From the NCBI GenBank assembly GCA_017528315.1, contig JAFXOW010000003.1, positions 95,222 through 159,221 on the forward strand: a DNA stretch of 64,000 nt, in the 5' to 3' direction. The notes under the pieces are model-generated. The model was not told the DNA's origin, made no database searches, and saw only the letters and a program-made list of their open reading frames with translations. The position numbers were made by a program, and so were the translations under genes. Shown piece after piece: positions 12,316-39,825 of the stretch. The stretch is from Bacilli bacterium. Lineage in GTDB: Bacteria > Bacillota_I > Bacilli_A > RF39 > UBA660. Each line of letters opens with the position of its first letter. The stretch's first letter is position 1.

Positions 12316-12834
12316 TTATTCAAGATATTTCTCTAAATAATGATTCATTAAATCAACTAACTTAGTATCGATATTTTGATAATTATCACTTAAGAAAATA
12401 ATTAAACCAACTGTATCACCATTTATAATTATAGTTTTAATAAGATAAGTACTATCTATAACATTTTCACTGCTAAGTAATAAATTTATCTTTGTTTGTT
12501 TTATTACTTCTCTTCTTTCATCTAAAATATTCGAAAGATAAGGACTCAACTCTTTACATACTAAATACTGATAATTTTTACTTACTATTTTAAAATTATT
12601 TAAATTAGTAAGTAAAATATCTACTTTATAAACATCACTTATAATATCCAAAAGATTTTTTAAAGCATTATCACTCTCATCTAATTCTGAATAACGATTT
12701 AAAATTATTTCTTCTCCTTGAACATTTATTTCAACTTGTTCATTTTCTTTAATTTTTAAAACTTTTCTTATTTCTTTAGGAATAACTATTCTTCCTAAAC
12801 TATCTACTCTTCTAACCATTCCTGTTGTTTTCAT
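12316..12834 (-). CDS. spoVT: Stage V sporulation regulator SpoVT (AbrB-type N-domain plus C-terminal sensor domain)
   Basis: N-terminus MKTTGMVRRVDSLGRIVIPKEIRKVLKIKENEQVEI (swapped-hairpin AbrB fold). The 172-aa length and the position near mfd match Bacillus. Confidence 0.8.
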   Translation of the reverse strand: MKTTGMVRRVDSLGRIVIPKEIRKVLKIKENEQVEINVQGEEIILNRYSELDESDNALKNLLDIISDVYKVDILLTNLNNFKIVSKNYQYLVCKELSPYLSNILDERREVIKQTKINLLLSSENVIDSTYLIKTIIINGDTVGLIIFLSDNYQNIDTKLVDLMNHYLEKYLE

Positions 12835-29628: not shown

Positions 29629-30090
29629 TTACATTGTTTTTTTCTCTATTCTTTTACTAAATAATTGTTGTAGTCGTGTAGCTCTTAGAAGTTGCATCTC
29701 AAATGACGAACAAGACATACGTAAAACAACACTTTTTCCACCTTCAAAGGTTACTTTAGTATATCCTCCTTGAGGTTCATATTTAGAGACATTATTAAGT
29801 GATATCCAAGAACATTTATTATTTGCTAAACCATTTGTTGGAAAGAAGATAATACTATTGGTTTCTTCAACAATAATTGGTAATTTATAATTACTACCTA
29901 ATATCATCTTAGTACCTTTAAGTCTTCCATCATAGCTACTTCCATAAAAAGAACAACTATCTTCCATTACCTCAAAACTAGTTTTAGGCAAAAAATATTC
30001 CTGATTATTTTCTATCACCTTAGATACTTCATCGTTAACATTTAAAACAGCACAAGTGTTCTTATTAATTTCATAACTATCAATATCCAT
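29629..30090 (-). CDS. comK: ComK-family transcription factor
   Basis: Aligns block by block with my recollection of B. subtilis ComK. SCSFYGSSYDGRLKGT matches SCRFFGSSYAGRKAGT. YKLPIIV matches HKPPIMV. IIFFPT...CSWIS matches IFLFPT...CGWIS. VTFEGGKSVVL...SSFEMQLLRA matches VTFSNGKTMEL...NSFENQVYRTA. RBS AGGGGGTGA. Confidence 0.8.
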   Translation of the reverse strand: MDIDSYEINKNTCAVLNVNDEVSKVIENNQEYFLPKTSFEVMEDSCSFYGSSYDGRLKGTKMILGSNYKLPIIVEETNSIIFFPTNGLANNKCSWISLNNVSKYEPQGGYTKVTFEGGKSVVLRMSCSSFEMQLLRATRLQQLFSKRIEKKTM

Positions 30091-30166
30091 TACTTCACCC
30101 CCTATACATTTAAATTAAATCTAAATTTTTTCACTTGAAAATGAATAAAACTTAAATTTGGTTGAT

Positions 30167-30210
30167 ACTATAACAGATATATTTGTCGAATATTTGCACG
30201 TTTTGTCGAA
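30167..30210 (-). promoter_or_regulatory. comK-like promoter: two perfect Spo0A 0A boxes plus -10 TATAGT
   Basis: TGTCGAA at 30184-30190 and 30204-30210 (read TTCGACAAA in the gene direction, 20 bp start to start). The -10 TATAGT is at 30172-30167, 11 nt from the proximal box. There is no recognisable -35. Confidence 0.6.
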
Positions 30211-37613: not shown

Positions 37614-37673
37614 TTTAACAAAATAATTAGTCTTAGCTGATTAATTATTTTTCTTTTTAATTTATTGTCAAAA

Positions 37674-37707
37674 TTCGACAAAGTTCGACAAATAAGTTCT
37701 ATATAAT
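37674..37707 (+). promoter_or_regulatory. Promoter of the nucleotidyltransferase cassette: two perfect Spo0A 0A boxes plus -10 TATAAT
   Basis: TTCGACA at 37674-37680 and 37684-37690 (complement of TGTCGAA, 10 bp start to start). TATAAT is at 37702-37707, 11 nt after the proximal box. There is no -35 at 17-bp spacing. Confidence 0.6.
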
Positions 37708-37725
37708 GCAACATGGAGGCACAAA

Positions 37726-38637
37726 ATGACAAATGAATTAAAAAAATTAACTAAAAAAATTGATAAAGAATTTATTGAATATTTTCTATCAGATGTGGAG
37801 GTAGAAACAATCTTTGTAGCAGGGTCTATGGCTTATGATGACTATCAAGATAGAGAGGATAATGATTATGATATTCGGGTAATAGCAAAAGAAGTTAATC
37901 GAGATAAAATTATTAATTTTGAAAAATTTCTAGAAGAGTTATCTCGTAAACTATCTACCCCAAGTATAGAAGTAGGCTATTCCTGTTTAGTAGGACCGGT
38001 AAATCATAAAGTATCAAGTGATAAAAAGAATATTTTAATACATGCAATGATACATAGAAGTGATCAAATGGATGGTTTTTTACCGGTTACTCATAAATAT
38101 CAATATGGAAGTAGATATAGAATAGTATATGGAAAAGATTCTTTAGAAAGATTTCAAAATATAAGGTATAATATAGATGAACTAGTAAATGCTCATGAAG
38201 GGCTTTATTATTGTATTGATATGTTAAAGCATAAAGAATACCGTTATTTAACATGGGATACAGATAATAATAAATGTGAATTTAATTATCATTTTGTGGA
38301 GATGACAGAGGATATAGTGTTGGAAATTTGTTTTTATTCTGTTAATAAATTTGTAGATAACTTAATAAATTATTGTAAATGGGAAAACTATGAAATAACA
38401 GAAAACAAAGTAATATTTTGTATAAGATTACTTGGACAAGAAAATGTTAATGAAAGCATTTTATTTTTACTTCAAGGATTATTAACCAAAAGTGAATCAT
38501 TACTAAAAGCTATATTTCATGATCCTCTACAAGAAACTATCAACTTACTTGAAAAATTTGTCCAAAAAGTTTATTTAATAGATAATATTTTTCCTAAAAA
38601 AGAACTAGAAAAAGTTAAAAAATTAGCAAGGAGTTAA
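37726..38637 (+). CDS. Putative Pol-beta-superfamily nucleotidyltransferase with a helical C-terminal domain
   Basis: N-terminal IFVAGSMAYDDYQDREDNDYDIRVI fits the G-S...[DE]x[DE] NTase pattern. RBS GGAGG. Confidence 0.45.
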   Translation: MTNELKKLTKKIDKEFIEYFLSDVEVETIFVAGSMAYDDYQDREDNDYDIRVIAKEVNRDKIINFEKFLEELSRKLSTPSIEVGYSCLVGPVNHKVSSDKKNILIHAMIHRSDQMDGFLPVTHKYQYGSRYRIVYGKDSLERFQNIRYNIDELVNAHEGLYYCIDMLKHKEYRYLTWDTDNNKCEFNYHFVEMTEDIVLEICFYSVNKFVDNLINYCKWENYEITENKVIFCIRLLGQENVNESILFLLQGLLTKSESLLKAIFHDPLQETINLLEKFVQKVYLIDNIFPKKELEKVKKLARS

Positions 38638-38642
38638 AAAAT

Positions 38643-39755
38643 ATGGAAGTAAATTATGAAGAAAATAATCTTGTAAACTTATCTAATTCAATTTTAAAGT
38701 ATTTTGGAATAAAACCATTTCATAATACTTTAGATGTTCTTGATAAAGAATTAGAAGAGAATAAATATAAGAATGTTGTATTATATGTCTGTGATGGTTT
38801 AGGTTATTATAATTTAAAAAAAGTATTAAAGTCTAATAGTTTTTTAAAACAAAAGAATCAAAATAGGAAAATATCAAGTGTCTTTCCTCCAACTACAACT
38901 GCAGCTACTACTACCCTACTCTCAGGACTTACTCCCTCAGAACATCATTGGTTTGGTTGGGATATGTATTTTAAAGATACAGATGAAACTACTTCTTTGT
39001 TTTTAAATTTAATTAAAGATTCTAGTACTAAATCCAAATTAAATGTATTAGATAGAGAATATATGAACTATAAAAATATAGTTGATTTAATTAATGAGAA
39101 TACCAATAATTTAGCTTATTTTGCCTACCCTTTTAGTAAAGATAATAAATGTTTAAATATTGATGATGTAAATAATCGAATTAAAGAACTAACTAAGAAA
39201 GAAGGTAAAAAGTTTATTTATGCTTATATTGAAAATCCTGATAAATTAATGCATAAATACGGAATATTTTCTCAAGAAGTAAAGAAAGAAATATATAATA
39301 TAAATGAAAAAATTGAAAAATTAAGTCAAGAGCTACATGATACTCTTATTATAGTAACAGCAGATCATGGATTAATACCAACAAAATCCATTATATTAAG
39401 TCGTGATTTAAAAGAAATGTATGATATGTTAGAAAGAACAACTTCTATAGAACCAAGATGTGTTGGAATAAAACTAAAAAAAGAAATTCAGAAAGAAGAG
39501 TTTATTAATTTATATAAAAAAGAACTTCTAAATGACTTTAAATTATTAACAGTAGAAAAAGCAATAGAAAGTCATTTATTTGGTCTAAAAGATAGCATTT
39601 ATCTTCGTGATACAATTGGAGACTATCTATTAATTGCAACTAATAATATAGCCCTATTCTATGATGAAAAGGCTCCTAAATTTAAGGCTAATCATGCTGG
39701 ACTCTCTAAAGAGGAATTAGAAGTACCACTTATAATGATTGATTGCAAATTATAA
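38643..39755 (+). CDS. Alkaline-phosphatase-superfamily protein (type I phosphodiesterase/nucleotide pyrophosphatase-like)
   Basis: VVLYVCDGLGYYN, SVFPPTTTAATTTLLSGLTPSEHHWFGW and IIVTADHGL resemble the metal-ligand and nucleophile motifs of the AlkP/NPP fold. It starts 5 nt after the upstream gene. Confidence 0.55.
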   Translation: MEVNYEENNLVNLSNSILKYFGIKPFHNTLDVLDKELEENKYKNVVLYVCDGLGYYNLKKVLKSNSFLKQKNQNRKISSVFPPTTTAATTTLLSGLTPSEHHWFGWDMYFKDTDETTSLFLNLIKDSSTKSKLNVLDREYMNYKNIVDLINENTNNLAYFAYPFSKDNKCLNIDDVNNRIKELTKKEGKKFIYAYIENPDKLMHKYGIFSQEVKKEIYNINEKIEKLSQELHDTLIIVTADHGLIPTKSIILSRDLKEMYDMLERTTSIEPRCVGIKLKKEIQKEEFINLYKKELLNDFKLLTVEKAIESHLFGLKDSIYLRDTIGDYLLIATNNIALFYDEKAPKFKANHAGLSKEELEVPLIMIDCKL

Positions 39756-39793
39756 AACTATGTTATAAAAATGTGACATAGTTTTATTTTTGT
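39756..39793 (+). terminator. Intrinsic terminator of the NTase-AlkP cassette
   Basis: AACTATGT-N12-ACATAGTT followed by TTATTTTT. Confidence 0.6.
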
Positions 39794-39825
39794 GATATAA
39801 TTACGTCTAGTTTGGGGTGAAGTAT

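Follow-up and report, generated by a model that had tools for sequence, protein, structure and literature searches.

The window, by which we mean the whole stretch of 64,000 nucleotides that was analysed, holds the replication origin of a genome of 1.36 Mb with 25% G+C and 93% completeness, and this host genome comes from a lineage of uncultured herbivore-gut Bacilli with genomes of 1.2 to 1.5 Mb. The related contigs are from uncultured assemblies named "Bacilli bacterium" or "Clostridia bacterium", obtained from the gut of roe-deer, rabbit and chicken and from rumen. The gene order in the window is gyrB-recF-comK-dnaN-dnaA, oriC, orf347-rnpA-yidC-jag-orf266-NTase-PDE-mnmE, in which a nucleotidyltransferase (NTase) and a phosphodiesterase (PDE) form a two-gene cassette, and the promoters of the comK-like gene and the cassette lie 7.5 kb apart. 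The features of the cassette locus are the following:

37620..37659, plus strand: AT-rich terminator hairpin with a U tract, after the upstream 266-aa ORF (fold -11.5 kcal/mol, z -3.8)
37664..37670, plus strand: distal degenerate 0A-type box ATTGTCA with 3 mismatches, 31 nt from the -10 element
37674..37680, plus strand: middle 0A box TTCGACA, 21 nt from the -10 element, at the position and in the orientation of the single spoIIGA box
37684..37690, plus strand: proximal 0A box TTCGACA, 11 nt from the -10 element and 10 bp, start to start, from the middle box
37702..37707, plus strand: -10 element TATAAT, with the leading TA invariant and the last T nearly invariant in 15 species
37715..37719, plus strand: Shine-Dalgarno sequence GGAGG, 7 nt after the -10 element
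37726..38637, plus strand: NTase of the Pol-beta superfamily, 303 aa, with a predicted ANT-like two-domain fold, a weak PF18765 match and the motif GS...DNDYDIR
38643..39755, plus strand: PDE/nucleotide pyrophosphatase of the alkaline-phosphatase superfamily, 370 aa, PF01663 at 9e-21
39745..39793, plus strand: terminator hairpin with a 16-bp inner stem and a U tract, ending the bicistron (fold -19.1 kcal/mol, z -5.0)

Judged by the predicted folds, the NTase/PDE cassette is a bicistron insulated by terminator hairpins on both flanks. The upstream hairpin, which insulates the cassette promoter, was matched in fold by none of 200 shuffled sequences, and mnmE was found by the consensus promoter scan to have a promoter of its own (GTGACA-17-TATAAT plus TG, 39773-39801). 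The ATG of the 303-aa ORF is located at 37726, and since the Shine-Dalgarno sequence follows the -10 element by only 7 nt, the leader is very short, with a predicted transcription start at about 37713-37715; the spoIIGA and kinase promoters described below have the same layout from the -10 element to the Shine-Dalgarno sequence.

Read on the other strand, the repeat TTCGACA is exactly the 0A box TGTCGAA, and TTCGACAAA corresponds in the same way to the extended 0A box. The first-pass annotation had described tandem 0A boxes 10 bp apart with TATAAT following after 11 nt, and this description was confirmed, with the two boxes starting at 37674 and 37684 and the -10 element at 37702-37707; the pair TTCGACAAAG-TTCGACAAAT spans 37674-37693, with 11 nt from the box to TATAAT. 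A third box, one turn further upstream, was found in most species, where the distal position reads TTTGACA or ATCGACA (1 mismatch), as in G019, G016, G010 and G018. No -35 hexamer was found at a spacer of 16-18 bp in the cassette promoter, and the consensus scan returned no plus-strand promoter there. The -10 element is extended, with TGn before it, in the cassette promoters of many relatives, and no TG precedes it in the host genome and its closest relatives. The weaker -10 elements of relatives (TATATT, TAATAT, TATAGT) are usually the ones preceded by TGn, as is expected of a real extended -10.

Two other promoter assignments in this region were considered and rejected. A core promoter built from TTGTCA at 37665 has no usable -10 element at 17 bp. 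The minus-strand match TTGACA-16-AATAAT (37644-37671) is near-perfect and is directed to the left, into the terminator that follows the upstream ORF; it faces no gene, and in relatives it is the plus strand that carries TTGACA. This match is probably incidental to the variant sequence of the distal box, which reads TTGTCA on the plus strand of the host genome.

With the AlphaFold2 model of the NTase (pLDDT 91.6), the best Foldseek matches were ANT(9), AadA, ANT(6), ANT(4') and LinB, all with probability 1.0, a TM score of only 0.45-0.52 and an identity of 9-13%. The NTase family is rare and confined to few lineages, with 95 clusters among 1.8 billion representatives, and a search of PDB sequences, by profile for the NTase and by sequence for the PDE, gave no match for either. 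Inspection of the PDE sequence by eye showed no evident signal peptide, and the TTT, DHG and NHAG motifs, which were also picked out by eye, appear to resemble active-site motifs of the alkaline-phosphatase superfamily. A defence-system reading of the cassette was rejected, as PADLOC gave only sub-threshold matches to PglZ and PDC.

The pair is also found in a second lineage (42-52% identity; loci L112-L120, e.g. L114 280-2385), in the swapped order of PDE and then NTase, where no 0A boxes precede it and an ordinary TTGACA-18-TATTAT promoter is found instead. That the pair is kept there without the boxes suggests that the enzymes are a functional pair and that Spo0A control is specific to the host genus, and the obligate pairing with a PDE argues against an antibiotic-nucleotidylating role for the NTase. 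In some members of the genus, the slot between jag and mnmE holds only a 123-aa remnant of the NTase C-terminus and no PDE (L021, G011, 1492-1990); the remnant is still behind tandem TTCGACA boxes, yet these lie 20 and 30 nt from TATAAT.

The promoter that had been compared with that of the cassette belongs to the comK-like gene:

29629..30090, minus strand: comK-like gene, 153 aa, PF06338 at 6.8e-38
30167..30210, minus strand: comK promoter, with the distal box at 30204-30210, a decayed middle box at 30194-30200, the proximal box at 30184-30190, and TGT plus TATAGT at 30175-30167

The comK-like gene was found in 21 of the 22 other genomes of the genus (the one miss, G018, is 82% complete) and in family- and order-level relatives as well. 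Its distal and proximal boxes are exact copies of TTCGACA, and the proximal one is followed, after 11 nt, by TATAGT (30172-30167), so that the claimed equality of the box-to--10 distance holds at 11 nt in both promoters, as does the claim that the 11-mer TTCGACAAATA is common to the two. The two comK boxes of the host genome do not have the 10-bp spacing of the cassette boxes: decay of the middle box has left them at a distance of 20 bp, and the gap is filled by a middle box in relatives. An alignment of 24 genomes, two of which belong to other genera of the family, gives a consensus of three tandem TTCGACAAAA units followed by TGnTAttaT, or, written as an array, TTCGACAAAATTCGACAAAATTCGACAAA-N8-TGnTAttaT. 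The CAAC that had been pointed out just after the -10 element is present in both promoters of the host genome and is conserved in neither alignment, and it was therefore regarded as a coincidence and rejected as a common element.

In the comK leader (about 30105-30160, minus strand), an element GAAATTTGAGTTTTCCAC-N6-GTGGATAAAATTTAAATTT between the -10 element and the ribosome-binding site is conserved in relatives. It holds an inverted DnaA box pair, TTTTCCAC / TGTGGATAA, which are the two variants that build oriC here; the pair is degenerate in the host genome. This suggests that DnaA may also act on comK. A reading of the element as a pair of A4-N5-T4 ComK boxes was rejected, as the inverted DnaA box pair fits better.

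The occurrence of the boxes was compared with chance expectation, first of all for the single repeat. TTCGACA alone is not enriched in the window (6 in comparison to 2.9 expected, with 11 of 100 shuffles reaching 6), and this lack of significance would favour a reading of the repeats as chance, or as a mutational tandem duplication, without a regulatory role. The results for paired boxes are different in kind: the whole genome has one exact pair at the 10-bp period, in the cassette promoter, and none of six Markov-1 simulated genomes has any, and pairs with up to one mismatch at this period occur 4 times in the genome in comparison to about 0.2 expected. All four exact TTCGACAAA sites of the window sit in the cassette and comK promoters. 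When the genome was scanned for three boxes, the cassette promoter and the promoter of an orphan histidine kinase ranked first, and the comK promoter, with 5 mismatches, was tied with C10 and C61, all of these being in the top five of the genome. Across 201 genomes of the class, the pattern TTCGACA-N3-TTCGACA-N11-TANNNT matched 17 times, with the matches spread over 8 of the 21 genomes sampled from the same family and a single one of the remaining 180, in comparison to 0 matches for the pattern read backwards. The significance of the boxes rests on their pairing, position and conservation, and not on the count of single boxes.

Conservation was followed across the genus. NTase orthologues, 52-77% identical, were found in 15 of its 22 other genomes and in 0 of the 18 genomes outside it, and in the alignment of the cassette upstream regions (A2, 15 species) only the boxes, the TA...T of the -10 element, the ribosome-binding site and the start codon align. 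The flanks are unalignable in the alignments of the cassette, comK (A3, 24 genomes) and kinase (A6, 20 species) promoters alike, and the boxes, the TA...T of the -10 element and the ribosome-binding site stand in them as islands. The proximal cassette box holds its position with at most one mismatch in 12 of the 15 species. As the alignments present them, the cassette and comK arrays are ancestrally of three boxes, located 11, 21 and 31 nt from the -10 element. The register is kept in 15 species at the cassette and in 24 genomes at comK despite proteins that are only 52-77% identical, and together with the uniqueness of the exact pair in the genome and the 17 matches against 0 for the control pattern in the 201 genomes, these comparative data effectively refute a chance origin. 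The proposal of a specific promoter design common to both loci was thus upheld, and the design was extended by a third member, the promoter of the orphan kinase:

C52:46671-47909: orphan polytopic histidine kinase, 412 aa, with the H-box HEIKNPI; promoter array at C52:46610-46670

The kinase promoter has a three-box consensus in 20 species (loci L077-L096), in which 11 nt separate the proximal box from TGcAATAAT, and no response regulator gene adjoins that of the kinase. The array is likely to constitute a Spo0A feedback loop on a sporulation kinase. On the evidence of the three alignments, the promoter design is real, had three boxes in its ancestral form and comprises at least three members.

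The factor that recognizes such boxes elsewhere is present in the host genome, which encodes a full-length Spo0A of 255 aa (PF08769 at 1.1e-41) that comprises a receiver domain as well as the conserved recognition helix SRVERAIRHAIEVSW. The genome contains 62 exact 0A boxes, and those that are promoter-proximal and face a gene precede spoIIGA (PF03419), a sirA-like gene (PF10747), the orphan histidine kinase, a SPOR-like protein and dnaG. The spoIIGA gene served as a control: in 22 species a single invariant TTCGACA is located 21 nt upstream of a conserved TATACT, which itself lies 6-7 nt before the ribosome-binding site, and this indicates that a classic Spo0A-activated operon makes use of the box, that the orientation of the cassette boxes matches it and that a very short leader is normal in the genus. 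The sirA-like gene is similar:

C52:2234-2712: SirA-like protein, 142 aa, PF10747 (sporulation inhibitor of replication), with a 0A box 21 nt from TATAAT

Its box at 21 nt is perfect and oriented as the cassette boxes are, and a weak box, TTAAACA, is found at 11 nt. The upstream region of spo0A itself carries a 0A box with 1 mismatch, and no 0A box with at most one mismatch was found upstream of spoIIE (C54:16095-16315, 220 nt) or in the upstream region of the sigF-like gene; from the case of spoIIE it follows that the exact box does not mark every canonical Spo0A target. A gene for a 215-aa sigma factor is preceded, at 56 nt from its start, by an exact 0A box in inverted orientation, TGTCGAA (C80:64166-64222), and this sigma factor may be Spo0A-controlled and of the sigH type. 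No abrB was detected in the genome, the only AbrB-like match being a 172-aa SpoVT homologue (12316-12834, minus strand), so the control offered by an abrB-type repressed promoter is absent from the host genome, and the classic Spo0A-AbrB branch may be missing in the lineage. The two loci had been proposed to form a common regulon under Spo0A or a factor of like specificity, and the encoded Spo0A, the boxed spoIIGA and sirA-like genes, the conserved arrays and the kinase promoter all support this proposal.

From these observations we infer that Spo0A very probably binds the cassette array. The 0A box is conserved from Bacillus to Clostridioides difficile (PMC3485338), and in Bacillus phages footprinting has shown Spo0A on a pair of boxes with 3 bp between them (PMC2731898). 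In the mechanism we propose, the tandem TTCGACA repeats would be Spo0A~P sites that stand in for the -35 element of a sigma-A-type promoter which has only a -10 element, of the extended TGn kind in many relatives. The boxes would lie at about -50/-44, -40/-34 and -30/-24, on one helical face, and their 10-bp period and their distances of 31, 21 and 11 nt upstream suggest that Spo0A~P units are arranged head to tail on one face of the DNA from about -50 to -24. Spo0A~P would then activate transcription by replacing the missing -35 contact, as it does at spoIIG. Three near-consensus boxes should bind cooperatively, and activation would thus be expected at a lower level of Spo0A~P than at the single-box spoIIGA; the common design of the cassette, comK and kinase promoters further suggests that the three units are one Spo0A-controlled class.

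The best explanation of the promoter design, to which we assign a probability of roughly 0.6, is thus that the Spo0A~P-bound repeats activate the cassette promoter; repression would be clearly less probable, with control that switches direction according to the Spo0A~P level not counted apart. Two findings were counted for activation, namely (i) that none of the cassette, comK and kinase promoters has a -35 hexamer at a spacer of 16-18 bp, and (ii) that all arrays are oriented like the spoIIGA and sirA boxes, the counterpart of spoIIGA in B. subtilis being activated by Spo0A. Arrays of response-regulator sites at PhoB- and PhoP-activated promoters also end about 10 bp from the -10 element. An extended -10 element can work without a -35 element or an activator, however, so the missing -35 is no proof of dependence on an activator, and the enzyme pair of the second lineage, which does without boxes behind an ordinary promoter, speaks against reading the cassette as Spo0A-controlled.

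The same anatomy could also be read in the opposite direction, although we consider this unlikely in comparison to activation. The -10-only promoter would be constitutive during growth, and coverage of -50 to -24 by Spo0A~P would silence the cassette, comK and the kinase at sporulation entry, which at the kinase would amount to negative feedback. The proximal box (about -30 to -24) lies between the usual position of a -35 element and the -10 element, inside the footprint of RNA polymerase, and extended TGn -10 elements, independent of a -35, are common in all three alignments. There are also precedents: the phage promoter A2c is repressed by Spo0A at a pair of boxes with a 3-bp gap, which overlap its core promoter (PMC2731898), and comK of B. 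subtilis is repressed when Spo0A~P reaches high levels (PMC3297582). What counts against repression is that the middle box is located exactly at the position and in the orientation of the invariant spoIIGA box, that the arrays all have the orientation of the spoIIGA and sirA boxes, for which simple occlusion has no need, and that the cassette -10 element has no TG in the host genome and its closest relatives, so that this promoter alone would be weak.

A further possibility, which we regard as very improbable, is that the arrays are bound by another regulator of overlapping specificity, either a PhoP-like response regulator on the phased repeats or the product of the comK-like gene. Promoters of the Pho regulon have a classic layout in which phased direct repeats occupy -50 to -24 and replace a -35 element, and comK is itself a member of the class. 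Against this, the heptamer is an exact 0A box with an A-rich flank, and neither TT(A/T/C)ACA nor the A4-N5-T4 ComK box; the identical heptamer is invariant at spoIIGA; and no cognate regulator adjoins the orphan kinase. Activation by Spo0A~P therefore remains the reading we prefer.

If activation by Spo0A~P is correct, the conserved module would mark, from the DNA letters alone, the three units that are likely the first to respond to Spo0A~P, and it would provide the first functional hint for a rare and unannotated enzyme pair, whose expression would be expected at stationary-phase or sporulation entry. Three-box promoters, set against single-box ones such as that of spoIIGA, offer a testable sequence basis for low- versus high-threshold Spo0A genes. 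It is tempting to go one step further and regard the three-box promoters as a distinct early, low-threshold Spo0A~P regulon of genome-reduced gut Bacilli, with a core that comprises the orphan kinase as a trigger of sporulation (positive feedback), a ComK-type regulator and an enzyme pair that would attach a nucleotidyl mark to a small molecule or protein, and remove it again, in the sporulation decision, and in this full form the idea is speculative and rather doubtful. To our knowledge, only a handful of cultured species of Bacillus and Clostridium have a mapped Spo0A regulon, and the full pattern gives a simple search for Spo0A targets in related metagenome-assembled genomes.

Several known systems can be compared with the cassette and its promoter. 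With regard to the cargo, the cassette NTase appears to have, like the ANT-type NTases, an N-terminal Pol-beta NTase domain with GS...DxD and a C-terminal helical domain; the key differences are that its identity to them is 9-13% at a TM score of about 0.5 and that it is always paired with a PDE of the AlkP family, and nothing supports a resistance function. With regard to the promoter, the nearest counterparts include those of the spoIIG type (B. subtilis spoIIG and spoIIE), which likewise have a -10 element, no -35 element at a 17-bp spacer and a box in the TTCGACA orientation about 21-22 bp upstream; in B. subtilis spoIIG, a -35-like element overlapped by 0A boxes is located 22 bp from the -10 element. 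The cassette promoter shows this geometry, its middle box being 21 nt from TATAAT as in the spoIIGA control of the genus, and it differs from the spoIIG type in its extra boxes at 11 and 31 nt from the -10 element and in having consensus boxes, unlike the weak ones of B. subtilis spoIIG. In Pho-box promoters (PhoB of E. coli, PhoP of B. subtilis), head-to-tail response-regulator repeats likewise take the place of the -35 element and stop about 10 bp short of the -10 element, which is an activating geometry; the regulator family and the repeat sequence differ from those considered here, and the likeness is an analogy only and not a membership.

The abrB promoter and the 0A-1 site of the phi29/Nf promoter A2c (PMC2731898) likewise have two 7-bp boxes with 3 bp between them, which are the unit of a Spo0A dimer, but these operators repress, while the array described here is longer and is fixed relative to the -10 element. 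Spo0A sites are likewise found at the comK promoter of B. subtilis, where they tie competence to the level of Spo0A~P (Mirouze et al. 2012, PMC3297582). There, five imperfect sites (A1-3, R1-2) are distributed around a promoter with normal -35 and -10 elements, and Spo0A~P mainly counters Rok (PMC3297582); here, in comparison, up to three consensus boxes are arranged in strict 10-bp phase without a -35 element, and the module is reused on an enzyme cassette and a kinase. In general, Spo0A boxes at a promoter are a well-known mechanism, and what is added in this lineage is further members of the regulon, which differ from the known cases in the stereotyped three-box array that abuts the -10 element and in the cargo.
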